DNA of 64,000 bases from an uncultured Collinsella sp. (GTDB lineage: Bacteria; Actinomycetota; Coriobacteriia; Coriobacteriales; Coriobacteriaceae). The stretch lies in assembly GCA_900541025.1 (NCBI GenBank), contig UQIL01000006.1:31519-95518 (forward strand), read 5' to 3'. Below, one piece after another: positions 13,932-59,719 of this stretch (its first letter is position 1; each line of letters opens with the position of its first letter). Position numbers and translations under genes: made by a program. The notes under the pieces were generated by a model, which made no database searches, was not told the DNA's origin, and saw only the letters and a program-made list of their open reading frames with translations.

Positions 13932-15449
13932 ATGCCGTACTATCTTGGCATCGACATTGGAACGAGTGCGTCCAAGGGCGTGTTAATTGATGCGGAGTGT
14001 CGAATTGTGGCGCAGGCATCTTGCCAACATGAAACCGAGAACCCTCAGGATGGTTGGTATCAGCACGATACAGAAGCGATTTGGTGGGGTGATTTTTGCC
14101 GGCTGTCTCGCGAGCTTATCGAGCGCGCGGGCATCGAGGCCAACCAGATCCGCTGCGTAGGGTTGTCGGCTTTGGGCTGTGATTGCGTGCCGGTCGATGA
14201 AGATTGCCACGCCTTGGCTCCGGCAATTCTCTACGGGGTCGATGCTCGCTCGAAGCCGCAGATTGACGAGCTTCTTTCCGAATATGGCCCCGATCGCGCT
14301 CGCGAGCTCTTTGGACACGATCCGTGTTCGTCGGATATCGCCCCTAAGGTCCTTTGGTTTAAGGAGAATATGCCCGAGGTCCATGAGCGGGCGGCGAAGT
14401 TTCTTACGGCTTCGTCCTATCTATGCGCCAAGCTTACCGGCAGGTTTACGATCGACCGTTACCTTGCCGAGGATTTCCTTCCCTTATACGATCGTGAGAC
14501 GTGGCAGGTTAATGAGCGCGGGTGCGCGCGGTTCTGCCGTCCTGACCAGATGGCCGAAGTCATGGCGGCGACCGATATCGCCGGCGTAATCACGGATCGG
14601 GCGGCGGTTGAAACCGGTCTTGCGAGGGATACGCCGGTGCTTGTCGGAACAGGCGATTCGGGCGCCGAGGCGATTTCTACTGGAGTGTTCTGCCCCGGGG
14701 ACATGATGGTGCAACTCGGGAGCACGGCCTACTTTATCTATTTGGCGGACCATATGGTCGATGACGCTCGTCTATGGCCAGGGACATTCATCATCCCCGG
14801 AACCTACGGCATCTGCGCCGGGACCAATACAGCAGGTGCGTTGACGGCGTGGTTGCGACGCGAGTTGTACCGCGATGTCATGGATGCCGAACACTCCGGC
14901 GGTCCCGATGCCTATGAGGTCATGGCGCACGATGCCGGGCAGGTAGGTCCTGGAGCAGATGGCCTGCTGTGTCTTCCATACTTTGCGGGCGAGCGCACCC
15001 CGCTCAACGATCCCGAGGCGCGTGGCGTGTTCTTCGGTCTGACCGAAAGGCATACCCGGGGCCATATGGTCCGCGCGGCTTTGGAAGGGATCGCCTACAC
15101 TGTTGCGGCTCATGTCGACATCATCGAGCGCGAGCACGGGCTTCCCATCGAGCGCATCATGCTCGTGGGCGGCGGAACTAAGAATCCGGTATGGATGCAG
15201 GCGATTGCCGATGTCTGCGGTCGTGAGGTCTCGGTTGCGAAGGTTACGGTGGGCGCATGTTTTGGCGATGCTCTTATGGCGGCACTTGCTGGCGGCGCCT
15301 ATTCATCATGGGGTGAGCTTGCCCGGGTTCTTGGGGTCGCGCAAACGATCGAGCCTGATATGGACGCTCATGAGCTGTACGCATCGCGCCGCCGTATCTT
15401 TGATGAGCTATATGCGCGAAATTGCGACCTTATGCACGAGCTAGTATAG
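13932..15449 (+). CDS. FGGY-family carbohydrate kinase (xylulokinase-like)
   Basis: YYLGIDIGTSASKG N-terminus and a C-terminal GGGTKNPVWMQ. ATG 13932 follows SD GAGGGGAG. Confidence 0.85.
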   Translation: MPYYLGIDIGTSASKGVLIDAECRIVAQASCQHETENPQDGWYQHDTEAIWWGDFCRLSRELIERAGIEANQIRCVGLSALGCDCVPVDEDCHALAPAILYGVDARSKPQIDELLSEYGPDRARELFGHDPCSSDIAPKVLWFKENMPEVHERAAKFLTASSYLCAKLTGRFTIDRYLAEDFLPLYDRETWQVNERGCARFCRPDQMAEVMAATDIAGVITDRAAVETGLARDTPVLVGTGDSGAEAISTGVFCPGDMMVQLGSTAYFIYLADHMVDDARLWPGTFIIPGTYGICAGTNTAGALTAWLRRELYRDVMDAEHSGGPDAYEVMAHDAGQVGPGADGLLCLPYFAGERTPLNDPEARGVFFGLTERHTRGHMVRAALEGIAYTVAAHVDIIEREHGLPIERIMLVGGGTKNPVWMQAIADVCGREVSVAKVTVGACFGDALMAALAGGAYSSWGELARVLGVAQTIEPDMDAHELYASRRRIFDELYARNCDLMHELV

Positions 15450-18969: not shown

Positions 18970-20649
18970 ATGGCGGAGTTTATCTACCAGATGTATCAGG
19001 CTCGCAAGGCCCATGGCGACAAGGTAATCCTTGACGACGTGACCCTGAGCTTCTACCCCGGTGCCAAGATCGGCGTCGTGGGCCCCAACGGCATGGGTAA
19101 GTCGACCTTGCTTAAGATCATGGCCGGTATTGAGGAGGTCTCCAACGGCGATGCCAGGCTCACCCCCGGCTACACCGTGGGCATCCTGCAGCAGGAGCCG
19201 CCGCTCGATGACGACAAGACCGTCATCGAGAACGTGCGCATGGCGTTTGGCGACATGATCGCCAAGGTCGATCGCTTCAACAAGATCGGCGAGGAGATGT
19301 GCGACCCGGATTGCGACATGGACGCCCTCATGGCCGAGATGGGAAAGCTCCAGGACGAGATCGACGCCGCCGACGGCTGGGATATCGATTCCAAGCTCGG
19401 CCAGGCCATGGACGCCTTGCAGCTGCCCGATTCCGACATGCCGGTCAACGTACTTTCCGGCGGCGAGCGCCGTCGCGTGGCCCTGTGCAAGCTGCTGCTC
19501 GAGGCTCCCGACCTGCTGCTGCTCGACGAGCCCACGAACCACCTGGACGCCGAGTCGATCCTGTGGCTCGAACACTTCCTGCACAACTACCAGGGCGCGG
19601 TGCTTGCCGTCACACACGATCGCTACTTCCTGGATAACGTTGCCGAGTGGATCTGCGAGGTCGACCGCGGTCACCTTTATCCCTACAAGGGCAACTACTC
19701 CACGTATCTGGAGACCAAGGCCGCCCGTATCGAGGCGCAGGGCAACCGCGACGCCAAGCTCGCCAAGCGCATGGAGGCCGAGCTCGAGTGGGTACGCAGC
19801 TCGCCCAAGGCTCGCCAGGCAAAGAACAAGGCCCGTCTGGCACGCTACGAGGAGATGGAGGCCGAGGCCCGCGCAAGCCAGAAGCTCGACTGGACCGACA
19901 TTCGCATTCCCGTTGGACCGCGTCTGGGCAACAAAGTGCTCGAGGCCCATCACCTGCACAAGGAGTTCGATGGCCGTGTGCTCATCGACGACCTATCGTT
20001 CACCCTGCCGCGCAACGGCATCGTGGGCGTCATCGGCCCCAACGGTGTGGGCAAGACCACGCTGTTCAAGACTATCGTGGGCCTGGAGCCGCTGACTTCG
20101 GGCGAGCTTGAGGTGGGCGAGACCGTCAAGATCTCCTATGTCGATCAGAACCGTTCCGGCATCGACCCCGATAAGAACCTGTGGGAGGTCGTCTCGGACG
20201 GCCTGGACCACATGATGGTGGGCGAGACCGAGGTCCCCAGCCGCGCGTACGTGGCGAGCTTTGGCTTTAAGGGCCAGGACCAGCAGAAGCGCGCTGGTGT
20301 ACTCTCCGGTGGCGAGCGCAACCGTCTGAACCTGGCGCTCACGCTCAAGCAGGGCGGCAACCTGCTGCTCCTCGACGAGCCCACGAACGACCTCGACGTC
20401 GAGACGCTGTCCTCGCTCGAAGCGGCGCTGCTCGAGTTCCCGGGCTGCTCGGTGGTCATTAGCCACGACCGTATGTTCCTGGACCGCGTCGCCACACACA
20501 TTCTGGCGTGGGAGGGCACCGACGAGAATCCGGGCAGCTGGTATTGGTTCGAGGGCAACTTCGAGGCCTATCAGGCCAATCGCATCGAGCGCCTGGGCGA
20601 GGACGCGGCCCAGCCGCATCGTATCCACCGTAAGCTGACGCGCGACTAG
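18970..20649 (+). CDS. ettA: ABC-F translational throttle ATPase EttA
   Basis: MAEFIYQMYQARKAHGDKVILDDV... N-terminus, two ABC cassettes, 559 aa. Confidence 0.9.
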   Translation: MAEFIYQMYQARKAHGDKVILDDVTLSFYPGAKIGVVGPNGMGKSTLLKIMAGIEEVSNGDARLTPGYTVGILQQEPPLDDDKTVIENVRMAFGDMIAKVDRFNKIGEEMCDPDCDMDALMAEMGKLQDEIDAADGWDIDSKLGQAMDALQLPDSDMPVNVLSGGERRRVALCKLLLEAPDLLLLDEPTNHLDAESILWLEHFLHNYQGAVLAVTHDRYFLDNVAEWICEVDRGHLYPYKGNYSTYLETKAARIEAQGNRDAKLAKRMEAELEWVRSSPKARQAKNKARLARYEEMEAEARASQKLDWTDIRIPVGPRLGNKVLEAHHLHKEFDGRVLIDDLSFTLPRNGIVGVIGPNGVGKTTLFKTIVGLEPLTSGELEVGETVKISYVDQNRSGIDPDKNLWEVVSDGLDHMMVGETEVPSRAYVASFGFKGQDQQKRAGVLSGGERNRLNLALTLKQGGNLLLLDEPTNDLDVETLSSLEAALLEFPGCSVVISHDRMFLDRVATHILAWEGTDENPGSWYWFEGNFEAYQANRIERLGEDAAQPHRIHRKLTRD

Positions 20650-20692: not shown

Positions 20693-20811
20693 GCGGGTCG
20701 CAAGCACCCCATCTTGCCGTTCAAGCCGTCGTTCGCGTACCGAAGTACGCGTCGCTCCTCTTTCACGGCAACCTGGGGCACTTGCGGCCCGCTCGCTGTT
20801 GGTTACGCAGC

Positions 20812-44748: not shown

Positions 44749-45528
44749 CTAGAACAGGAAGCCGATGGCGATGAGGGCGATGCTGACGATGAGCACGGCG
44801 ATGTCCAGACCCTTGATGGGATAGCGCTTGTACGAGCTGGCGCGTGTGCGCAGATAGAAGCCGCGCTGTTCTGCCGCCAAGGCTGTGGCATCGGTCTTGC
44901 CCACGCTCGAGATGAGCAGTGGCACGCACAGTGGCAGCATGAGCTTAAGCTTCTTGATGGGGTTCTTGGTATCGTACTCGACGCCGCGTGCGGTCTGCGC
45001 CTCCATGATGGCATTCATCTCCTGACCAAACACCGGTACAAAGCGCAGCGCCGTGGTAAAGGTGAAGGCATAGCGATACGGCACATGCAGCACCTCGACG
45101 CAGGCGTTGGCAAGGTCGTTGAGCTTGGTCACCATGAGCATGAGGATGAGTGGTAACGCCACACCCAGCAGGCGCAGGCAGGCCTTCGATCCTGTGATGA
45201 GGCCCGTGTCGGTGATAAAACCCCACACCACGTTGCCATCGCGCATAAAGGCCAGCTGGAGCATCAGCATGATAAGCGCGAGCGGAATCAGCAACTTGAG
45301 CAGCGAGAACAGACGGTCGACGACGCCGGCATAGGCACCCAGCGCAAGGGTGAGTGCCAAAAAGCCCAGCAGCGCCACGTAGGTGTCGGACAAAAAGATG
45401 CCGACGATGATGGCGGCGGCGAGGCCCAGTTTGACGACGGGATTCAGGCGATGCAGCAGCGTATCGCCCGGCATGTAGTCGATGACGTTAACCACGGTGG
45501 ACCATCTCCTTGGTAATTCGAACGACAT
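44749..45528 (-). CDS. ecfT: ECF transporter transmembrane (T) component
   Basis: Y.PGDTLLHRLNP..K N-terminus and Ala-Arg-Gly signature (AQTARGVEY). The start is ambiguous (45528, 45495 or 45474) and overlaps the ecfA end. Confidence 0.8.
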   Translation of the reverse strand: MSFELPRRWSTVVNVIDYMPGDTLLHRLNPVVKLGLAAAIIVGIFLSDTYVALLGFLALTLALGAYAGVVDRLFSLLKLLIPLALIMLMLQLAFMRDGNVVWGFITDTGLITGSKACLRLLGVALPLILMLMVTKLNDLANACVEVLHVPYRYAFTFTTALRFVPVFGQEMNAIMEAQTARGVEYDTKNPIKKLKLMLPLCVPLLISSVGKTDATALAAEQRGFYLRTRASSYKRYPIKGLDIAVLIVSIALIAIGFLF

Positions 45529-47239
45529 CGGTGACCTCGCTCACCTGCGCAAAAGCGGGCGAGACGGAAGATGCCAGACGGCGCGAGAGTTCGATGACCT
45601 GGGGCGGCTCAACGTAGGCATGCTGCATGAGTTCGATGTTCGAGAACAGCTCGTGCGTGCGGCCGCGATCGAGGATGCGGCCGTCGGCCATTACTACGAT
45701 GCGCTCGGCAAAGTCGGAGACGACTTCCATGTCGTGGCAGACCATGATTACGGCGCAGCCACGCTCGGCCATGGTACGCACCGTTTCCATGACGGTCATG
45801 CACTCGCGGTAATCAAGGCCGCTCGTGGGCTCGTCGAGCACCACGATTTTGGGCTCTACGACCATGACGGAGGCGAGTGCCACCATTTGTCGCTGGCCGC
45901 GCGAAAGCGAGAAAGGCGCCTCGTCGGCCGGCAAGCCAAAGCGGTCGATGACGAGTTGGGCACGACGCAGAGCCTCGGCGCGGTCCATGCCGCCAAGCTC
46001 CAAGCCAAAGGCGACCTCGTCGAGCACGGTGTCCTTGCAGATTTGACGGTCAGGGTTTTGGAAGAGGGTTGCGACCTCGCGGGCAATGCGGCTCGTGGGG
46101 ACGGTTGCGGTATCCAGTCCCGTGACGCGCACGCTGCCCGAGGCGGGCTTGAGCAGACCCGTGAGCAGCTTGGTGAGCGTGGTCTTGCCGGCACCGTTTT
46201 GGCCGACGATGCCCACGAGCTCGCCAGGATAGAGCGTCAGGCTAAGGTCGTGTACGGCGGCTCCGCCATTGGGATAGGCAAACTCAACATGGTCGAAGGT
46301 GAGTACGGGTTCGGCGTCCTTGGCATGAGGGCGCAACGACGGTGCATGCGGGGAACCGGCGGGCGCTTGGGCGTCGCTGGCAGCATGTGCGGGGTCGACG
46401 ATGCCCGAAATCAGGCGCTCGGCCTCATCGACATCCAAACAGGGGGTGCCGCTTGCCAGGCCGTCGGCCTCGAGACTATTGAAGATACGCGTTACGCGGG
46501 GACAGTCGACGCCAATAGTACGAAGCTCATCGGTGTGCGCGAAGACCTCATGCGGCTCGCCCTGCAGCGCGATTTCGCCATGGTTGAGCACGAGCACGCG
46601 GTTGCAATACTCCGAGAGCAGGGCGACCTTTTGTTCAACGACCACGATGGTGATGCCAAGTGTGCGGTTTGCCTCGCGCAGGGTCTCGAAGACCAGTGTG
46701 GAGCTGGCGGGGTCGAGTGCTGCGGTGGGCTCGTCGAGTACCAGTACGCGGGGGCGCATGGGGAGGATGGCGGCGATGGCCACCTTTTGCTTCTGTCCGC
46801 CCGAGAGGGTGGCGATCTCGCGGTCGCGCAGGTCGCTGATACCGACGGTCTCGAGCGTCTCGTTTACACGCTGCTCGATCTGGTCGTGAGGGACGCCAAA
46901 GTTCTCCAGGCCAAAAAGCATCTCGTCCTCGACGACCGAGGCGACCATCTGCGTGTCTATGTCCTGCAACACGCTTCCGACGATCTGTGACACATCGGTG
47001 AGCGAGACCTCGCAGGTGTCGTGGCCGTCAACCACGACGGAGCCAAAGAACGTGCCGGTGTAGTGGTGGGGCACAGCGCCCGACAGGCAGGCGGCAAGCG
47101 TGGACTTGCCGGCGCCCGAGGGCCCGATGATGCCGATGAAATCTCCCTTGTTCACGTCGAGCGAGATGTGCTTAAGCGCCTGCTCGGTCTGCGTACCATA
47201 GGAGAACGAGACATCGTCGACGTTGATGATCGTTTTCAT
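45488..47239 (-). CDS. fused duplicated ECF ATPase (EcfA-EcfA')
   Basis: 583 aa. Two Walker A motifs (GPSGAGKST, GQNGAGKTT), two LSGGQ-like motifs (LSGGQKQ, LSRGQRQ) and two Walker B motifs. Confidence 0.85.
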   Translation of the reverse strand: MKTIINVDDVSFSYGTQTEQALKHISLDVNKGDFIGIIGPSGAGKSTLAACLSGAVPHHYTGTFFGSVVVDGHDTCEVSLTDVSQIVGSVLQDIDTQMVASVVEDEMLFGLENFGVPHDQIEQRVNETLETVGISDLRDREIATLSGGQKQKVAIAAILPMRPRVLVLDEPTAALDPASSTLVFETLREANRTLGITIVVVEQKVALLSEYCNRVLVLNHGEIALQGEPHEVFAHTDELRTIGVDCPRVTRIFNSLEADGLASGTPCLDVDEAERLISGIVDPAHAASDAQAPAGSPHAPSLRPHAKDAEPVLTFDHVEFAYPNGGAAVHDLSLTLYPGELVGIVGQNGAGKTTLTKLLTGLLKPASGSVRVTGLDTATVPTSRIAREVATLFQNPDRQICKDTVLDEVAFGLELGGMDRAEALRRAQLVIDRFGLPADEAPFSLSRGQRQMVALASVMVVEPKIVVLDEPTSGLDYRECMTVMETVRTMAERGCAVIMVCHDMEVVSDFAERIVVMADGRILDRGRTHELFSNIELMQHAYVEPPQVIELSRRLASSVSPAFAQVSEVTDVVRITKEMVHRG

Positions 47240-47368: not shown

Positions 47369-47920
47369 CTAATTGTTGAGCACCTTGCGCAGGGGGAAGA
47401 AGAGAGCCTGGACCACGACGGCGTTGAAGATGGCGGTGCCGAGCACGATGGGCACCTTGGCGAGCGCGGTGGGCAGCGCGGTACCCATGATGACGGTGCC
47501 CAGGACGGCGAAGAGGGCACCCGAGACCAGGGTGGTGAGCAGGCCGGCGATGAAGGGGTTGACCTTGTTGCCGCCGATGTTGGACTTGACGAGCGCCGCC
47601 ATCGTCAGCGCGCCAGCAAGCTCGGTCACAAAGTTGAGGCCGGGGATTGACGTGGTGATCTGGATGACGGCGGCTGACAGGATGCCAAAGATGGCTGCCT
47701 GGGCAAAGCTCGCCTGCGTGAGTGCGATGGCCAGGGCGTAGGCGGCAATGATGAACTGCGGCTTGATACCCGTTGCGGCAAGCGCGTTGCCCACGGTCAT
47801 GTTGAGGATAAAGCCGGCGGCAAGGAGGACGGCGAGCAGGACGAGCGAGGTGATATCGAGGATGCCTTTGTCGGAAGCGGCGTTGGCAGAAATAGTACGA
47901 GCCTGAGTGTCGGTGGCCAT
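47369..47920 (-). CDS. ECF substrate-capture (S) component, TrpP-like, paralog 1
   Basis: 183 aa with 5-6 TM. The layout and ...GIKPQFIIAAY... / AAVIQITT segments resemble the TrpP tryptophan-transporter family. Tentative. Confidence 0.7.
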   Translation of the reverse strand: MATDTQARTISANAASDKGILDITSLVLLAVLLAAGFILNMTVGNALAATGIKPQFIIAAYALAIALTQASFAQAAIFGILSAAVIQITTSIPGLNFVTELAGALTMAALVKSNIGGNKVNPFIAGLLTTLVSGALFAVLGTVIMGTALPTALAKVPIVLGTAIFNAVVVQALFFPLRKVLNN

Positions 47921-48128
47921 GATGTTCTCCTTAAGGTGGGATTTGAGATAAGAGTGTCCTAGACCCCCACGAAAGGGGTTAAATCGAAAAGGGGATTAAT
48001 TTTGAATAATGAAGCATGGAGACGGCTTTACGAGGGCCCCAGGTTGGCGCGAAAGAGGAGCGAAGCGTACTTGGGCACGCGAGCGACGAATGAACGCCAA
48101 GATGGGGTGGCTCGTAAAGCCGAGCGGG

Positions 48129-48701
48129 TTAGTTGAGCCTAAGGGCCTTCTGGATGGGCAAGTAGAGGGCACCGACCAGAATGGCGTTAAAGACGGCGGT
48201 CATGGCGACGACAGGCAGCATGGCGGCAGCGAGCTCGCCCACCACGCCGAGCATGGCCATCTTGATAGCCATGAAGATGACGCCCGAGACAAAGGTGGTC
48301 ACGAAGGTGGCGACAATGGCGACGACAGGCTTAACTTGGCCGTTCTTGCCGGCAGCGTTGACGATGGCGGCCATAAGCATGGCGGCGATGCCCTCGGCGG
48401 CAAAATCGATGAACGGCGAGGTGGTGGTGATCTGGATCACGGCGGCAGAGATGAGGCCGATGATGAGCGCCTGACCGATGTTGGGGCGCACGACCAAGAT
48501 GGTGAGGCAGAAGGCCGAGATGATGAACTCGGGGCTGATCATGCCGCCCGAGATGCCCGAGATGGCCTTACCGACGGTGAAGTTGAGGATAAAGCCGGCG
48601 GCAAGCAGGATGGCGAGTAGGACGAGGGCGCGGACATCGAGTTTGCCGCGGTCGGCGGTCTGGACGGTGCGGGGCTGGGTGGCGGTGGTGTTCTGAGACA
48701 T
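48129..48701 (-). CDS. ECF substrate-capture (S) component, TrpP-like, paralog 2
   Basis: ATG 48701 (SD GAAAGGA). It is clearly paralogous to 47369-47920 (LVLLAxLLAAGFILNxTVG, SAAVIQITT, FNAxxVxALxxPxxKxL). Confidence 0.7.
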   Translation of the reverse strand: MSQNTTATQPRTVQTADRGKLDVRALVLLAILLAAGFILNFTVGKAISGISGGMISPEFIISAFCLTILVVRPNIGQALIIGLISAAVIQITTTSPFIDFAAEGIAAMLMAAIVNAAGKNGQVKPVVAIVATFVTTFVSGVIFMAIKMAMLGVVGELAAAMLPVVAMTAVFNAILVGALYLPIQKALRLN

Positions 48702-48775
48702 GGTGAAAATCCTTTCGGAATGGGAGTGCAAGAGAAAAGCGGAGGCGCGTGATGCGAATGCGATCGGGCTCGAGA

Positions 48776-48810
48776 TAGAAAAAGGCCCCCGGTCGAAACC
48801 GGAGGCCTTC
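48776..48810 (-). terminator. attenuator terminator in the leader of the ECF operon
   Basis: Minus sense: GAAGGCCUCCGG-UUUCGA-CCGGGGGCCUU followed by UUUUUCU. Confidence 0.7.
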
Positions 48811-48845
48811 CAATCACCTAGAGCGCAAAAACAGGCGTGAGGGAC

Positions 48846-48914
48846 TCACTGTCGACCGATCGTATTCGCATCACGCCACCACCAGTTGTTGAGAGACGTC
48901 ATCGTGTTCTTCAT
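48846..48914 (-). CDS. 22-codon leader peptide MKNTMTSLNNWWWRDANTIGRQ with three tandem Trp codons
   Basis: Own translation. SD AAGGAG (48924-48929) lies 8 nt before the ATG. UGG UGG UGG = 48876-48884. Too short for the ORF track. Confidence 0.7.
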   Translation of the reverse strand: MKNTMTSLNNWWWRDANTIGRQ

Positions 48915-49042
48915 GTCGGTGGCTCCTTTCGTGATGCCATGGCGCGGTCGCACCTAGTTGCTGTTGCGCTGCACTATAGCACAGCGAAGTGTGTGCGGGG
49001 AAATCTTTTTTGAAAAGATTTCAGGCGGGTTTCCCGCCGGTC

Positions 49043-49080
49043 AAAAAGGCGGGCGGGACGAACCGTGCCATCCCGCCCGC
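49043..49080 (-). terminator. rho-independent terminator of the dipeptidase gene
   Basis: GCGGGCGGGA...TCCCGCCCGC stem followed by CTTTTT in minus sense. Confidence 0.8.
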
Positions 49081-49092
49081 ACCAGCGAGGGG

Positions 49093-51054
49093 CTACTCCT
49101 TATTGCGGCGATAGAGGAAGTAGCCGCCTGCGAAGATAACGGCAACACCGGCGACGGCGAATGCAGCCACCATACGGCCATCAAAACGATCACCGGTGGT
49201 GGGCAGGCCGCCCTTGGTGTTCGTCTTGTTGGTGGTTACCGTGGTCGTGGTATCCGACTTACCAGGCTTCTCGGGCTTGGTGGCGGGCTGCTCGGGCTTA
49301 GTGGGCTGCTCAGACTGCTCGGGGGTGCTGGGCTGTTCGGGCTTACCGGGCTGCTCGGGAGTGCCGGGCTGATCCGGGGTGACCGGGTCGGTGGCAAGGG
49401 CGTCCTGGGCGTAGGTGATGGACTCCTTGAGGCCCTTGGTCTCGGTGTTCAGGTCGCTCGGGGTGAAGCGCTCGTCAAAGTTTCCGGCCTTCTGATAAGC
49501 GCGCATCTCCTGGAGCAGGGCCTTGCACTTCTTGTAGGTGTTCTCGGTGGCAGCCTTGCCTGCCTTGTTGGCCAGAGCGGTGCGACCCTCGGTGGTCGTC
49601 TCGGCCAGCATAGCGGCGTCAACTTCCTTGTTCTGCTCGATGAGCTCGTTCTGGAGCGCGTCGAGGTAGGTGCGGACACTGGTACCAAGGGTGTCAGGGT
49701 TCTCAAAGCAGAGCGAGCTGATGTCCATGAGGACGTAGTTAATGGAGTTCTCGGGCTCCTCGTTGTACACGACGTCTTTCGCATTGCAGTGGTCGAAGGA
49801 GACGGTCTGATCGCTGAAGTAGGGGCTAACTTCAGTTATCAGAGCGGAGTACAGCGGGATGGCGACAGAGTACGCGGCACGGGAGAGCATTTCCCACTGG
49901 ATGGTAGCGACTTCGGGATCATACCCGCGACGAATCTGGAAGAGATTGATCTCGGTGTTGCGCTCGCTGCCGATGCAATAAACGCCATCAGTGTTCGCGT
50001 TGAGACCAGGGACGTTCTCTCCGCGGTTGCCGAAGGCACGAATCAGCTCAAAGGTGCTCCAACCAGACTTGCCAGGCTTGAAGAACAGAGGCTGGATTTC
50101 GCTGACCATAGCTCCCTTTTGGACGGGTTTTCCATCCTTATCGGTGATAGTTTTATTTTCGTAATCCGTGCCTTCGGTCAGCTGGCTAGCAAAATAATGG
50201 CGGCCTTGCACATAGCGGGACCATTGGTTAACGCCAGAATCGGCGAGGCTTTCGCCATACGTTTGGGCGACATCGAATTTACCGTCAGCGGAGTATTTGG
50301 CGAAACCCTTCTCCACGGGCATGGACTCGATGTCCTTGGAGTGCAGGCAGTTCTCAGTATCGTTCAGGTCGACATCGTAGTTGAGGCTGCCGATGTTGGG
50401 GTTGAGTGAGGCGACGTCGTCGGCCAGCTTCATGGCAATCCATTGATGGGCAGAAAGCGTGGCGAACAGCCAGGTCTCGTTGTTGTCGGCGATAATGATC
50501 TGGTCGTTAGTGCAAGTGCCCTGCTCGTCGATCAGGCTGCCGAGGAGCTCGACGCCCTCGCGGGCATTGGCGCTCTGGCCCAGGATGACGCTGCCGTAGC
50601 TGTACTCGCCGATGCCGGTAGCCTCATCGATTGGGTCTGCTGCTTTGGCATCCTCGTTATAGGAGGTGCTCAGCGTAGCGGAGCAAGAGACACCCTTCTC
50701 GTTGATACCGGCTTCGGAGTAGGCGTCGGTGTGGCCCTCCCAATTGGAGGGATGGTCACGTACGTAGCTGTAGCGATATGTAGGCTTATTCGAAGTGTAT
50801 TCGAAAGCAGACTCATTCGAGCTGTACGTAAAGCCGGCTTCGTGGGCGGGTTCGATGCCATAGTGCTTGAGATAGCGCTTGCCAAAGTCCTCGGCACGGC
50901 CATAGTACGTGTTGCCGTCGGCCGTTAGATCTTTGCCCATGTACATCTGCGTGCAGGCGAGCGCAGAGGTCGGCATGGACATGATGGTTGCAGCTCCAAA
51001 GGCGAGGCCTATGCCCAGCTTTTTGAGTGCGTTGACGGGGTGAGTTTTCCTCAT
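49093..51054 (-). CDS. C69-family dipeptidase, secreted and LPXTG (LPTTG) cell-wall anchored
   Basis: Signal peptide ending ...SALA|CTQMYMGK (N-terminal nucleophile Cys). The C-terminus has PEQP-repeat spacer, LPTTG, a hydrophobic stretch and RRNKE. Confidence 0.85.
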   Translation of the reverse strand: MRKTHPVNALKKLGIGLAFGAATIMSMPTSALACTQMYMGKDLTADGNTYYGRAEDFGKRYLKHYGIEPAHEAGFTYSSNESAFEYTSNKPTYRYSYVRDHPSNWEGHTDAYSEAGINEKGVSCSATLSTSYNEDAKAADPIDEATGIGEYSYGSVILGQSANAREGVELLGSLIDEQGTCTNDQIIIADNNETWLFATLSAHQWIAMKLADDVASLNPNIGSLNYDVDLNDTENCLHSKDIESMPVEKGFAKYSADGKFDVAQTYGESLADSGVNQWSRYVQGRHYFASQLTEGTDYENKTITDKDGKPVQKGAMVSEIQPLFFKPGKSGWSTFELIRAFGNRGENVPGLNANTDGVYCIGSERNTEINLFQIRRGYDPEVATIQWEMLSRAAYSVAIPLYSALITEVSPYFSDQTVSFDHCNAKDVVYNEEPENSINYVLMDISSLCFENPDTLGTSVRTYLDALQNELIEQNKEVDAAMLAETTTEGRTALANKAGKAATENTYKKCKALLQEMRAYQKAGNFDERFTPSDLNTETKGLKESITYAQDALATDPVTPDQPGTPEQPGKPEQPSTPEQSEQPTKPEQPATKPEKPGKSDTTTTVTTNKTNTKGGLPTTGDRFDGRMVAAFAVAGVAVIFAGGYFLYRRNKE

Positions 51055-58131: not shown

Positions 58132-59310
58132 ATGAACGTACTTGTTGTCAACGCCGGCAGCTCAAGCCTTAAATATCAGCTTTTGGATACCGATACCCGC
58201 AAGGTTTTCGCCAAGGGCAACTGCGAGCGTATCGGATCGGACATGGGCATCTTTGGCCACTCCGAGAACGGTGGCGCTAAGCAGACCGAGGAGGTCCCTT
58301 TCCCCGATCATCGCTCTGCTATCGCTCGCGTGCTCGAGGAGCTCGAGAAGACCGACTTTACGATTGATGGCATTGGGCATCGTATCGTTCAGGGCGGCTG
58401 GCACTTCGATGATTCCGCGGTTGTCGACGACGAGGTTATGGCCAAGATTCTTGAGGTGGCACCGCTTGCTCCGCTGCACAACTACGGCGAGGCCGCAGCG
58501 ATTGAGTATTGCCGTGAGAAGTATCCGGAGCTGCCCAACGTGGCGGTCTTCGACACCTCGTTCCACATGACCATGCCCGAGGTTTCCTACACCTACGCGC
58601 TGCCCAAGGACGTTTGCGACAAGTACCACGTGCGCAAGTACGGCGCCCACGGCACGAGCCACCGCTATGAGTGGATGATGGCCAAGGAGATCCTGGGTTC
58701 GCGCTGCCACCGCCTGCTTTCGTGCCATCTGGGCAACGGTGCTTCGCTCGCTGCTATCGAGGACGGCGTGTGCCGCGACACCACGATGGGTCTCACGCCG
58801 CTCGATGGCCTGATGATGGGCACCCGTTGTGGTTCCATCGACCCGGCCACCGTGTGCTACCTGCAGCGCGAGGGCGGCTACAGCTACCAGGAAGTCGATG
58901 ACATGATGAACAAGCAGTCTGGTCTGCTTGCCATCTCGGGCATCTCCAACGACGCCCGCGACATCCGCACGCGCGCCTCCGAGGGCGACGAGCGCTGCCT
59001 GCTCGCCTTCGATATGTTCGCCTACAAGGCCATGCAGCAGGCTGGCTCCATGATCGCCTCCATGGCGGGCGTGGACACCATCACCTTTACCGCCGGCATC
59101 GGCGAGAACGACTGGTCGATCCGCAAGGCCTTCTGCGACTGCTTTGAGTGGCTGGGCGTACGCATCGACAACAACAAGAACCGCGAGGCCGTGGGCAACG
59201 GCCCGCAGGTCATCAGCGCCGCCGGTTCCGCCGTCACGGTCATGGTCATCCCCACCGACGAGGAATACATGATCGCCCACGACGTCGAGCGTCTGACCAA
59301 GAACAACTAA
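58132..59310 (+). CDS. acetate/propionate kinase family, paralog 2
   Basis: Same length (392 aa) and the same catalytic motifs as paralog 1. By eye about 60 percent identical. Confidence 0.9.
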   Translation: MNVLVVNAGSSSLKYQLLDTDTRKVFAKGNCERIGSDMGIFGHSENGGAKQTEEVPFPDHRSAIARVLEELEKTDFTIDGIGHRIVQGGWHFDDSAVVDDEVMAKILEVAPLAPLHNYGEAAAIEYCREKYPELPNVAVFDTSFHMTMPEVSYTYALPKDVCDKYHVRKYGAHGTSHRYEWMMAKEILGSRCHRLLSCHLGNGASLAAIEDGVCRDTTMGLTPLDGLMMGTRCGSIDPATVCYLQREGGYSYQEVDDMMNKQSGLLAISGISNDARDIRTRASEGDERCLLAFDMFAYKAMQQAGSMIASMAGVDTITFTAGIGENDWSIRKAFCDCFEWLGVRIDNNKNREAVGNGPQVISAAGSAVTVMVIPTDEEYMIAHDVERLTKNN

Positions 59311-59333
59311 CGCACGTATTTGCAAGTAAACGA

Positions 59334-59369
59334 AAGGCCTCCAGAGCAACAGCTCCGGAGGCCTTTTTT
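59334..59369 (+). terminator. rho-independent terminator
   Basis: AAAGGCCTCCAGAGC-AAC-AGCTCCGGAGGCC followed by TTTTTT. Confidence 0.85.
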
Positions 59370-59719
59370 ACTAGCAGGCGGACGGCGGAAACCCCATCCC
59401 ATTTCGAGCGCAAATACTGGGACACGCCTTCCGGTTGAGGCACGTTGCGGAAAGTGCGACCCACAATAAAGCAAAATTCCGTCCCAAAGTTTCCCAAACA
59501 GGCCCCAAGCGGAAGCCACATCCCACAATCCGCCTCCAAACTGGGATGTAGTTTCCGGCACAACAACCGCCGAAGCCCACCGTCCTTTCAATCTCCAAAG
59601 TGATCATCATCAGCAACGCCTGCGCTCCCAGCAACGGCACCCATCCATTCAGATTTTCAGCTCCAGCTCGTAGCCAAGCCGCCGTCCACCCCGGATTCCC
59701 TGATTGCTACGTGGCGGCA

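Follow-up and report, generated by a model that had tools for sequence, protein, structure and literature searches.

A putative tryptophan leader-peptide attenuator in front of a TrpP-type ECF transporter operon in Collinsella

We describe a conserved leader which, judging from the comparison of related loci and from folding models, is most probably a ribosome-mediated, leader-peptide transcription attenuator that senses charged tRNA-Trp and is placed on the operon of a tryptophan-type ECF importer in Collinsella. The leader lies on the minus strand of a 64,000-nucleotide stretch of DNA (here called the window), whose host genus is Collinsella. While the mechanism of attenuation is classical, its use on this ECF transporter appears to be undescribed: a literature search found no example of a Trp leader peptide on an ECF system and no paper on this leader.

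Results

The leader ORF and its conservation

The leader ORF (MKNTMTSLNNWWWRDANTIGRQ*; 48846..48914, minus strand, as are all features of the locus given below) comprises 22 codons and a UGA stop, starting with the ATG at 48914 and ending with the TGA at 48848-48846. Codons 11–13 are UGG-UGG-UGG (48876..48884), the putative site of ribosome stalling, which is invariant in the protein-derived loci. A preliminary description of this DNA had proposed both the 22-codon ORF and its UGG codons, and they are borne out in the sequence; the other minus-strand features that it named were also found in place or within 1 nt. The Shine-Dalgarno sequence AAGGAG is real, although it occupies 48923..48928, 8 nt ahead of the ATG, and not 48924-48929 as originally given, a difference of one base. 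The hexamer TATAGT (48978-48973), named as a possible -10 in the same description, is present and is also preceded by TG, which makes it an extended -10 element (TGCTATAGT, 48973..48981), from which transcription would start at about 48966. In related loci this element reads TATAGT, TAAAGT or TATTGT, often with TTGCGC 17–18 nt upstream; a simple sigma-70 scan gave no full match to a two-hexamer promoter. The gene upstream has a terminator of its own (49080-49049).

By itself, a single TGGTGGTGG within 64 kb does not reach significance (0.44 expected; 33 of 100 shuffled sequences have one). Conservation, and not the count of WWW motifs, is what decides that the leader is unlikely to be there by chance, as none of the related loci examined lacks the ORF, the WWW, the stop at its position or the terminator. 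The leader was kept in all 79 of the 79 protein-derived loci of Collinsella species, and five further protein-derived lineages retain it with the WWW, the 9-codon distance to UGA and the motif GGUCGA-nnn-UGAG; it also occurs in relatives resembling Olsenella and in part of the Eggerthellaceae-type loci. The small ORF and its Trp codons are therefore conserved in relatives, the point on which the preliminary description had let its reading stand or fall.

In the leaders compared, the WWW is invariant and the stop falls exactly 9 codons later, UGA being the stop codon in all six protein-derived lineages, and the N-terminal stretch varies from 8 to 16 codons. The only constant residues of the peptide are the WWW, the Arg that follows and a Gly-Arg pair, with the middle residues varying. 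GGAG or GAGG precedes an in-frame start codon in 39 of 39 non-redundant leaders. A TrpP-like gene lies on the same strand behind 178 of 193 leader copies, and among the remaining 15 is a lineage in which this operon has decayed (7 copies inspected). The leader is retained while the downstream S component diverges to 40% identity; inside Collinsella the 5' region is nearly invariant and hence uninformative. A covariance model of the leader, made in this analysis, scores 97–122 bits on leader-bearing loci. Neither the window nor its flanks contain a second copy of the leader, a weak match of the covariance model at 59272-59372 having been rejected as an ordinary gene-end terminator.

The downstream operon

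Behind the leader lie, in this order, two S-component genes, a gene for a fused EcfA-EcfA' ATPase and a gene for EcfT. This is a dedicated (group I) ECF operon, in which S components, EcfA/EcfA' and EcfT are encoded together, and the same gene order is seen in relatives. The first S component (S1, 190 aa, 48129..48701), the start of which at 48701 is 213 nt past the leader ATG, and the second (S2, 183 aa, 47369..47920), a paralogue with 44% identity to S1, are both TrpP-like. Pfam model PF17099 (TrpP) matches S1 with 26.4 bits, under the cut-off of 27.2 and yet over the full length of the model, and a second TrpP match, of 23.4 bits against the same cut-off, also spans the full model. TrpP was matched at E <= 1e-3 in 14 of 14 aligned homologues, and a precomputed PF17099 match exists for many homologues; no NCBIfam model matched the S components, and the NCBI name for them is 'hypothetical protein'. 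The ATPase (583 aa, 45488..47239) matches Pfam ABC_tran twice, as well as the NCBIfam ECF ATPase models TIGR04520 and TIGR04521 above their cut-offs, and the EcfT transmembrane component (259 aa, 44749..45528) matches Pfam CbiQ with 92.9 bits. In one related locus (L160), an S2-type gene sits directly behind the same leader. A C. glutamicum protein also called TrpP (PMC11995493) was considered as a relative and dropped, being unrelated.

The Shine-Dalgarno sequence of S1 (AAAGGA, 48710..48715) is accessible in the predicted fold and not sequestered. The spacer between S1 and S2 contains a repeat-derived stem-loop of about 100 nt (48023..48122, z = -5.9), which lies outside the attenuator and has a second copy at 20705-20782 of the window.

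Predicted Trp auxotrophs prominently include Collinsella and Olsenella (PMC10665431). In four protein-selected homologues from Eggerthellaceae (L205-L208), the place of the leader ORF is taken by a T-box with a UGG specifier, which ties the transporter to tryptophan independently; a single orthologue group of S components thus includes loci with the leader (L097, L129) and loci with the T-box (L205-L208). Because of the WWW leader and of the UGG T-boxes on homologues, these S components are, in Collinsella and Olsenella, the likely tryptophan-linked route of uptake.

Terminator and alternative pairings

An intrinsic terminator (48779..48811) separates the leader ORF from the first structural gene; it has a 14-bp GC-rich stem and a UUCG loop, and its hairpin (48811-48780) overlaps a run of five U residues (48783-48779). 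The GC-rich hairpin with U5 of the preliminary description is thereby confirmed, and 39 of 39 leaders have a U tract together with a hairpin whose energy lies between -19 and -29 kcal/mol. Compensatory changes occur at 4 pairs of the stem, and 99% of the cells in the alignment are paired.

A second helix, which had been missed before, joins the Trp and Arg codons to the segment just past the leader stop (GGCGnGA:UCnCGCC). Its 5' strand, region 1 (GGCGUGA, 48871..48877), consists of the end of the third UGG, the Arg codon and the next bases, and its 3' strand is region 2 (UCACGCC, 48834..48840), which was identified by covariation and by state-dependent folds. In this helix 1:2, 89–92% of the cells are paired and three pairs have changed on both sides; the synonymous third position of the Arg codon changes in step with the base opposite (CG 17, UA 6, UG 3, unpaired 0). 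None of 500 shuffles attained the covariation score observed. Helix 1:2 is the predicted anti-antiterminator of the leader. When applied to the core alignment, RNAalifold returned a weak pairing, free of variation, between the Trp codons and GGUCGA..UGAG; on the comparison of sequences we prefer the covarying helix 1:2 over this invariant alternative. In many lineages, region 2 can alternatively form a local hairpin with the segment just before the terminator.

Region X (UCGGUCGA-cag-UGAGUC, 48843..48859), which covers the codons for Gly-Arg together with the last codon and the stop, was identified by complementarity and folding as the 5' strand of the candidate antiterminator, with UCGGUCGA (48859-48852) being complementary to UCGACCGG (48796-48789). 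The core complementarity, UCGGUC:GACCGG, is found in 26 of 26 aligned leaders with no variation, so that covariation lends it no support, and its 5' strand was fixed by the search pattern for 115 metagenome loci. The invariant core includes the two 3' bases of the loop, GA, which were unconstrained by the search pattern. All six protein-derived lineages keep GGU-CGA, with CGA making up 2.2% of Arg codons here and GGU 20% of Gly codons. The antiterminator core proposed in the preliminary description is thus invariant, and to it we can add that in many lineages the pairing continues onto the 5' arm of the terminator. This extension (GAGUC:GGCUC) is found in Olsenella-type leaders and is weak or absent in Collinsella-type and L125/L160-type leaders, for which reason it was rejected as a universal feature.

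Folding with and without a ribosome mask, a check suggested together with the trpL-type logic of the preliminary description, gave the expected switch: the predicted core forms when the ribosome is stalled and is blocked when the ribosome is at the stop. With the ribosome at UGG, the core had a pairing probability above 0.5 in 31–32 of 35 leaders (median 0.96–0.98), as opposed to 0 of 35 (median 0) with the ribosome at the stop codon; L083, L164 and L167 had low core probabilities even with a stalled ribosome. In truncated transcripts free of ribosomes, the core also exceeded 0.5 in 24 of 35 leaders, and these models therefore give no thermodynamic support to the predicted step from no translation to termination. 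The terminator is the more stable fold at equilibrium in nearly all fully transcribed leaders, and regulation therefore has to be kinetic. The barrier for refolding from antiterminator to terminator has a median of about 16 kcal/mol, as estimated by a direct-path heuristic benchmarked on an E. coli sequence.

Proposed mechanism

According to the attenuation model, transcription would begin about 50 nt upstream of the leader ORF. When tryptophan is plentiful, the ribosome would reach the UGA and cover region X and part of region 2, leaving the 5' arm of the terminator free to form the 14-bp hairpin followed by U5, and transcription would end near 48779. When charged tRNA-Trp is scarce, the ribosome would stall on the UGG codons, where it would cover region 1, blocking helix 1:2, while its footprint would stop about 7 nt short of X. 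Region X could then pair with GACCGG in the loop and 3' arm of the terminator, and in many lineages also with the 5' arm, before the remainder of the 3' arm emerges, a kinetic trap that would allow readthrough into S1-S2-EcfAA'-EcfT. If the leader is not translated, helix 1:2 (GGCGUGA:UCACGCC) would enclose X and termination should prevail. The stalling, the timing and the Trp dependence of readthrough are what we infer here.

The long-range helix and alternative readings

Segment A (48881-48856), which runs from the second UGG to GGUCGG and so overlaps the second and third Trp codons, can pair with a segment D located beyond the terminator (CCGAUCGCAUUCGCAUCACGCGCCUCC, 48741..48767), enclosing it. 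In the minimum-free-energy fold, 48877-48856 pairs with 48767-48744 (z = -4.1; 0 of 200 shuffles fold as well), and the A:D duplex of the window comprises 28 bp with -44.5 kcal/mol. Together with two enclosed hairpins, A:D makes up a three-way junction domain. In the attenuation model, A:D can form only once polymerase has read through and the Trp codons are clear of ribosomes. The 22/24 long-range complement reported in the preliminary description is thus real, and A:D covaries, but it is clade-specific: several lineages have recreated it with other sequences and others lack it, with z below -3 against 100 dinucleotide shuffles in 13 of 39 leaders (down to -7.7). Segment D is missing from WWWRNS-type and WWWRDSQAVGRS-type leaders, which keep the ORF, helix 1:2, X and the terminator. 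The U-rich tract that had been reported to follow the complement is not conserved, being present behind D in the window and in L087, and absent in L083, L089, L127, L147, L164 and L167. As the tract is not conserved and D has been lost in whole lineages, A:D with a U-rich tract was rejected as a general second terminator; sequestration of the S-component Shine-Dalgarno sequence by D was likewise rejected, since D lies anywhere from about 40 to over 150 nt from the start codon and there is no complementarity.

It is possible, although we consider it doubtful, that A:D (24–30 bp) acts as a second checkpoint which responds to the presence of ribosomes on read-through transcripts. Ribosomes stalling on the WWW would prevent it and keep the mRNA intact; once tryptophan is back and the leader has been cleared, A:D would form and lead to RNase III-type cleavage or, in some species, to a second termination. 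If this were true, the same three codons would set both transcription and mRNA lifetime.

A different reading would move the main control to this helix, with the occupancy of the Trp codons gating A:D in the full-length mRNA, decay or processing of the RNase III type or a second termination as the outcome, and the hairpin being merely leaky. Such post-transcriptional control would account for the length of A:D, for its strongly non-random pairing, remade from different sequences in several lineages, for its overlap with the second and third UGG, by which it excludes a stalled ribosome, and for the U-rich tract in the window and L087. We nevertheless consider it unlikely, because the D-less leaders of the WWWRNS and WWWRDSQAVGRS types keep ORF, helix 1:2, X and terminator, so that A:D cannot be the core mechanism, and the U-rich tract is lost even in close relatives such as L167.

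We see little chance that the small ORF is there by coincidence, or that its product is a functional micropeptide, with the hairpin being constitutive or under the control of a protein, for instance an RNA-binding protein at the A:D three-way junction. The conserved structured domain formed by A:D and its two enclosed hairpins would fit such a scheme, as would the lineage which retains leader and D despite decayed transporter genes, and Trp-leader RNAs and peptides are known to act in trans in Sinorhizobium (PMC6614838, PMC7298713). However, the peptide is constant only at the WWW, the following Arg and Gly-Arg, the fixed spacing from WWW to stop matches the geometry of a ribosome footprint, and whole lineages without the A:D domain still keep ORF and terminator; in addition, neither a TRAP-type triplet array nor an Rfam family match was found.

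Least probable of all is a TnaC-like arrest peptide, in which the nascent WWW peptide would sense free tryptophan and stall at the UGA, so that abundant tryptophan would induce the transporter, the opposite sign of control. The C-terminal part of the peptide is indeed fixed in length, with UGA always the stop in the six protein-derived lineages, and the first W and the D of the window peptide have the W-x3-D spacing of TnaC. The full pattern (W-x3-D...P-stop) is nevertheless not found: the D is variable, with RN, RS, RG, RP or RC seen in lineages elsewhere, the peptide does not end in Pro, and its last codon varies freely. Conservation is at the level of nucleotides (GGUCGA, UGAG, rare codons) and not of the peptide, the ORF is followed by an intrinsic terminator that an alternative pairing overlaps, whereas tna uses Rho, homologues use a UGG T-box, a starvation sensor, and induction of an importer by excess tryptophan makes little sense in predicted auxotrophs.

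Discussion

The leader and the T-boxes together give a likely function to S components that are without annotation. Collinsella and Olsenella are abundant gut Actinobacteria, and, as predicted Trp auxotrophs, they compete for tryptophan both with other microbes and with the host. What leader-peptide attenuation would control here is import, and it would do so in organisms that by prediction have no trp biosynthetic pathway. Moreover, within one transporter family and a single bacterial class, T-box and leader peptide appear to read the same signal, a case of sensor replacement. The RNA family is absent from Rfam, and the covariance model of the leader can be used for genome annotation.

Classical trp leader-peptide attenuators are also found on the trp operon and on trpS of Corynebacterium and Streptomyces (Seliverstov et al. 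2005, PMC1262725). In the Collinsella leader, as in E. coli trpL and the actinobacterial trp leaders, a short ORF contains tandem UGG codons (three in C. glutamicum trpL), and a GC-rich terminator with a U tract follows. Translation of this ORF, and the exclusive anti-antiterminator, antiterminator and terminator pairings through which classical trp attenuators read out the position of the ribosome, are predicted for it as well. The Collinsella leader has no sequence or structure homology to these leaders: an Rfam search of window positions 47500-50000 gave no match to Trp_leader RF00513 even at E <= 10, and matches in the leader were at chance level only. It would also control uptake, and not biosynthesis or trpS, in a predicted Trp-auxotrophic lineage; its stop lies 9 codons past the Trp run; the candidate antiterminator strand is located within the 3' end of the ORF and would target the loop and 3' arm of the terminator as well as the 5' arm; and many members add the long-range A:D helix around the terminator.

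Trp-specific T-boxes on TrpP-type transporter genes are known in Firmicutes. The window leader resembles a Trp T-box in that it is placed on the same transporter family, would read the charging of tRNA-Trp via UGG and would, within the 5' leader, set an intrinsic terminator against an antiterminator. In a T-box, uncharged tRNA is bound by the RNA itself and translation is not needed, whereas the window leader would rely on a translated WWW ORF; the Rfam search found no match to T-box RF00230 in it. With trpP (yhaG) of B. subtilis it has in common the regulation of a TrpP-family S component and an expression responsive to tryptophan, which in our case is predicted. That gene is controlled by TRAP, a protein which binds (G/U)AG repeats and senses free tryptophan. 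Taking 9–11 (G/U)AG triplets separated by 2–3 nt as the mark of a TRAP leader, the repeat array is missing from the window leader, the 296 nt of which contain 6 scattered triplets and no run of at least 5.

Lastly, His leaders occur on hisXYZ in Firmicutes, and histidine transporters belong to the His-leader regulon (PMC9413887, PMC3766115). These systems differ from the Collinsella leader in the amino acid, in the type of transporter, which is ABC rather than ECF, and in the phylum; what the two would have in common is ribosome-mediated attenuation on uptake genes for the cognate amino acid.

The leader and its transporter operon

The minus-strand leader in front of the ECF transporter genes is well supported as a ribosome-mediated tryptophan attenuator, which would control a tryptophan-type ECF importer and for which Trp-dependent readthrough is predicted. 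All the leader features listed in the preliminary description were found on the minus strand of the window: a TG-extended -10 (TGCTATAGT, 48981-48973), the Shine-Dalgarno (SD) sequence AAGGAG (present at 48928-48923, one base away from where it had been placed) and a leader ORF encoding MKNTMTSLNNWWWRDANTIGRQ from the ATG at 48914 to the UGA at 48848-48846, with its UGG codons at 48884-48876. A small hairpin takes in the leader stop codon, and the terminator, with a 14-bp GC-rich stem and a UUCG loop (48811-48780), enters a U5 tract (48783-48779) with its 3' end. The post-terminator segment D (48767-48741) precedes the first S-component gene, which starts at 48701 and has its own SD. In the minimum free energy (MFE) fold of the 283-nt leader, 48877-48856 pair with 48767-48744 around the terminator (z = -4.1; 0 of 200 shuffles as stable).

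The preceding gene (49093-51054, minus strand) encodes a C69-family peptidase whose repetitive, Pro/Glu/Thr/Lys-rich C-terminal region is followed by an LPTTG-like motif, a hydrophobic segment and a basic tail, which suggests a sortase-anchored surface dipeptidase. As this gene has its own terminator (49080-49049), the leader begins an independent transcription unit. A single TGGTGGTGG string is found by chance in 33 of 100 shuffles of the 64 kb and is therefore not unusual alone, so that the case for an attenuator rests on comparative evidence. Other TGGTGGTGG strings in related loci are antisense of the C69 peptidase repeat.

The four genes downstream of the leader, all on the minus strand, form a dedicated ECF importer operon: TrpP-like S component 1 (S1, 48701-48129), its TrpP-like paralogue S component 2 (S2, 47920-47369, 44% identical to S1), a fused EcfA-EcfA' ATPase (47239-45488) and EcfT (45528-44749). 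The two S components match the full length of the Pfam TrpP model with 26.4 and 23.4 bits, under the threshold of 27.2, and 14 of 14 aligned homologues match the same model; no NCBIfam model matches the window S components, and an Olsenella homologue is labelled 'hypothetical protein' by NCBI. The S1 protein matches that of one uncultured Collinsella sp. contig at 100% identity and those of the other 79 loci retrieved, nearly all labelled Collinsella, at 95-99%, which places the window in Collinsella. The 208-nt spacer between the S1 and S2 genes holds an extended stem-loop of ~100 nt (48023-48122, minus strand; MFE z = -5.9), found in the same position in 63 fetched Collinsella loci; in L083-type relatives the spacer is only 72 nt. 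A second copy, 86% identical over 78 nt, lies at 20705-20782 (plus strand), just after an ORF ending at 20649, and the element looks like a dispersed palindromic (REP/MITE-like) repeat.

Conservation of the leader

When loci were retrieved via the S-component protein alone, without selection for the leader, sufficient upstream DNA was available for 79 from Collinsella; every one of these had a single TGGTGGTGG ~183 nt ahead of the S-component gene, and their peptides are nearly identical. Five further distant lineages (76-84% protein identity, one of them an Olsenella uli-like genome) also carry a WWW leader, with the peptides MSRIARTSMNWWWRSLSAVGRS, MINFSNNSVMNWWWRDAYTVGRL, MFQSMNNNWWWRNSISLGRW, MNKSAMSTSNNWWWRDAFSVGRL and MSAMQNLPMNWWWRDANTVGRL. 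The alignment across relatives suggested in the preliminary description thus bears out the leader, as WWW and the stop position are kept in Collinsella and in these five protein-derived lineages. A metagenome scan by a leader-anchored pattern, biased to WWW and GGUCGA and not to the terminator, segment D or the downstream gene, added 115 loci. Among the 193 leader copies with 450 nt or more of downstream sequence, a TrpP-like gene (40 to 100% identity to the window protein) comes next on the same strand in 178, and the other 15 gave no TrpP match; the seven of these inspected all come from a single metagenomic lineage in which this operon is present as a decayed copy.

In this lineage (loci L091, L102, L106, L107, L110, L130 and L140) the S-component gene is nearly gone, its last ~11 codons (..PIKKALKVED and stop) being left, and EcfA/EcfT are truncated or fused. 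The leader ORF, terminator and segment D are intact, and the few changes in segments A (the leader segment corresponding to 48881-48856) and D preserve pairing (A-U to G-U). Either the decay would be recent, or the leader RNA may have a use of its own.

Each of 39 non-redundant leaders has an SD with an in-frame start codon, nine codons from WWW to stop and a hairpin (-19 to -29 kcal/mol) that leads into a U tract, the N-terminal part of the peptide ranging from 8 to 16 codons. The leader also stands directly before an S2-type paralogue (locus L160, leader 14456-14590, minus strand) and before a third S-component type (loci L097 and L129), where an EcfT-like gene is directly next and whose homologues are annotated as Eggerthellaceae. 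It therefore goes with the whole S-component family rather than with one orthologue, and is present in three or more families of Coriobacteriia. A weak match to the leader covariance model at 59330-59372 (plus strand, 16.8 bits) proved to be an ordinary intrinsic terminator after an ORF ending at 59310.

Base pairing and folding of the proposed switch

RNA structure was assessed in a 26-sequence alignment of the leader core, in which the terminator was 99% paired with compensatory changes at four positions. A further helix, 1:2, forms between GGCGnGA (region 1, 48871-48877, which runs from the end of UGG3 through the Arg codon into the bases after it) and UCnCGCC, directly past the stop codon (region 2, 48834-48840), with 89-92% of alignment cells paired. 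Covariation is seen at the third, synonymous position of the Arg codon, whose pair is C-G in 17, U-A in 6 and U-G in 3 sequences and is never broken; the covariation score was reached by 0 of 500 column shuffles, and sliding the partners abolished pairing. This putative anti-antiterminator is an addition to the earlier model, which had described no such pairing.

The proposed antiterminator survives in its 6-bp core, UCGGUC:GACCGG, and is extended beyond its first version. Being identical in 26 of 26 sequences, the core cannot covary. In six protein-derived lineages the Gly-Arg codons are always GGU-CGA, with the following codon free to vary, while usage in the window genes is 20% for GGU among Gly codons and only 2.2% for CGA among Arg codons. 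The terminator loop likewise always ends in the two bases 'GA', whereas its other bases vary, and the search pattern did not include the terminator. Fixed codons and invariant loop bases together argue for selection of the core as RNA.

With UGG in the A site, the footprint of a stalled ribosome ends ~7 nt before UCGGUC and covers region 1. When RNA has emerged only to GACCGG, the core then forms with a median P of 0.96-0.98 (P > 0.5 in 31-32 of 35 leaders), and in Olsenella-type leaders the antiterminator grows to an interrupted helix of ~15 bp, which also uses UGAGUC against the terminator 5' arm and encloses a local region 2 hairpin. A ribosome that has reached the stop codon covers the core (P = 0 in 35 of 35), and folding under these two masks is as the switch first drawn would predict. 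With the whole hairpin transcribed, nearly all leaders are most stable as the terminator fold; L085-type leaders are the exception, the antiterminator winning there with a stalled ribosome. Regulation must therefore work kinetically, which is also how E. coli trpL is understood. The refolding barrier from antiterminator to terminator fold had a median of ~16 kcal/mol by a direct-path estimate, and ~6 kcal/mol for E. coli trpL, a value that is indicative only. The weak point is that 24 of 35 truncated transcripts keep the core at P > 0.5 when no ribosome is present, so that the predicted superattenuation step rests on folding order and not on thermodynamics.

The 22/24 complement noted in the preliminary description is real and is part of a long-range duplex of 24-30 bp between segments A and D, which reaches back to UGG2-3 (-44.5 kcal/mol in the window). 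Judged by 100 dinucleotide shuffles of each post-terminator region, this A:D helix departs strongly from chance (z < -3) in 13 of 39 leaders, and it is rebuilt from differing sequences by lineage (for example GAUGCGAAUAC with AUUCGCAUC, GGUGUCGAAAC with GUUUCGGCC, GCGCGAUUCGC with GCGAAUCGCGC), with a split version at locus L081 (GGUGGCG/CCUCUC). Among the 39 leaders it is missing from the WWWRNS and WWWRDSQAVGRS types, which retain every other element, and conservation of the U-rich tract beyond D breaks down even among close relatives. This rules out the helix and tract as a general second terminator and makes A:D a genuine add-on in some clades, outside the core switch. As it can form only after readthrough, and only without a ribosome on the Trp codons, it may have a role in message processing, decay or stabilisation.

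The probable tryptophan signal and comparison with known systems

An independent link between the transporter and tryptophan comes from four Eggerthellaceae homologues, for which protein similarity was the sole selection criterion (66-76% identity to the L097-type S component) and which have no WWW ORF (0 of 4). All four have instead a full-length T-box leader (RF00230; 61-75 bits, E 1e-11 to 1e-16), at 2562-2802 in L205, 2631-2877 in L206, 2624-2877 in L207 and 2624-2862 in L208, which routine annotation would miss as the Rfam cut-off is 93. In each, AAA-UGG-N is aligned at the specifier position, which implies control by tRNA-Trp charging, and a terminator and then S-EcfA-EcfA'-EcfT follow. 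T-box and WWW leaders both occur within one S-component orthologue group: the same transporter family would respond to the same signal through two different RNA sensors. At L208 the T-box leader is preceded, at a distance of ~180 nt, by a tRNA gene (2373-2445, 65.5 bits). Of the Actinobacteria predicted to be Trp auxotrophs in a published survey, 41.6% belong to Collinsella and Olsenella (PMC10665431), and it is in these two genera that the WWW leader is most evident.

The in silico evidence for the anatomy and logic of the attenuator is strong, and the original reading stands, with helix 1:2 added, the antiterminator extended and the role of A:D re-evaluated. In contrast to trpP of B. subtilis, which is controlled by TRAP, the window leader has no TRAP-type array. 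No Rfam family matches the leader, Trp_leader (RF00513) giving no hit, and in the full-text literature, the coverage of which is incomplete, we came across no account of a Trp leader peptide that controls ECF or TrpP genes, so that the negative cannot count as evidence of absence. Known actinobacterial attenuators with a Trp leader peptide govern trpS and, in Corynebacterium and Streptomyces, the trp operons, whereas transporters and Coriobacteriia are not reported there (PMC1262725); for histidine, transporter genes are under leader-peptide attenuators (PMC9413887, PMC3766115). The leader is a new family inside a known mechanistic class.
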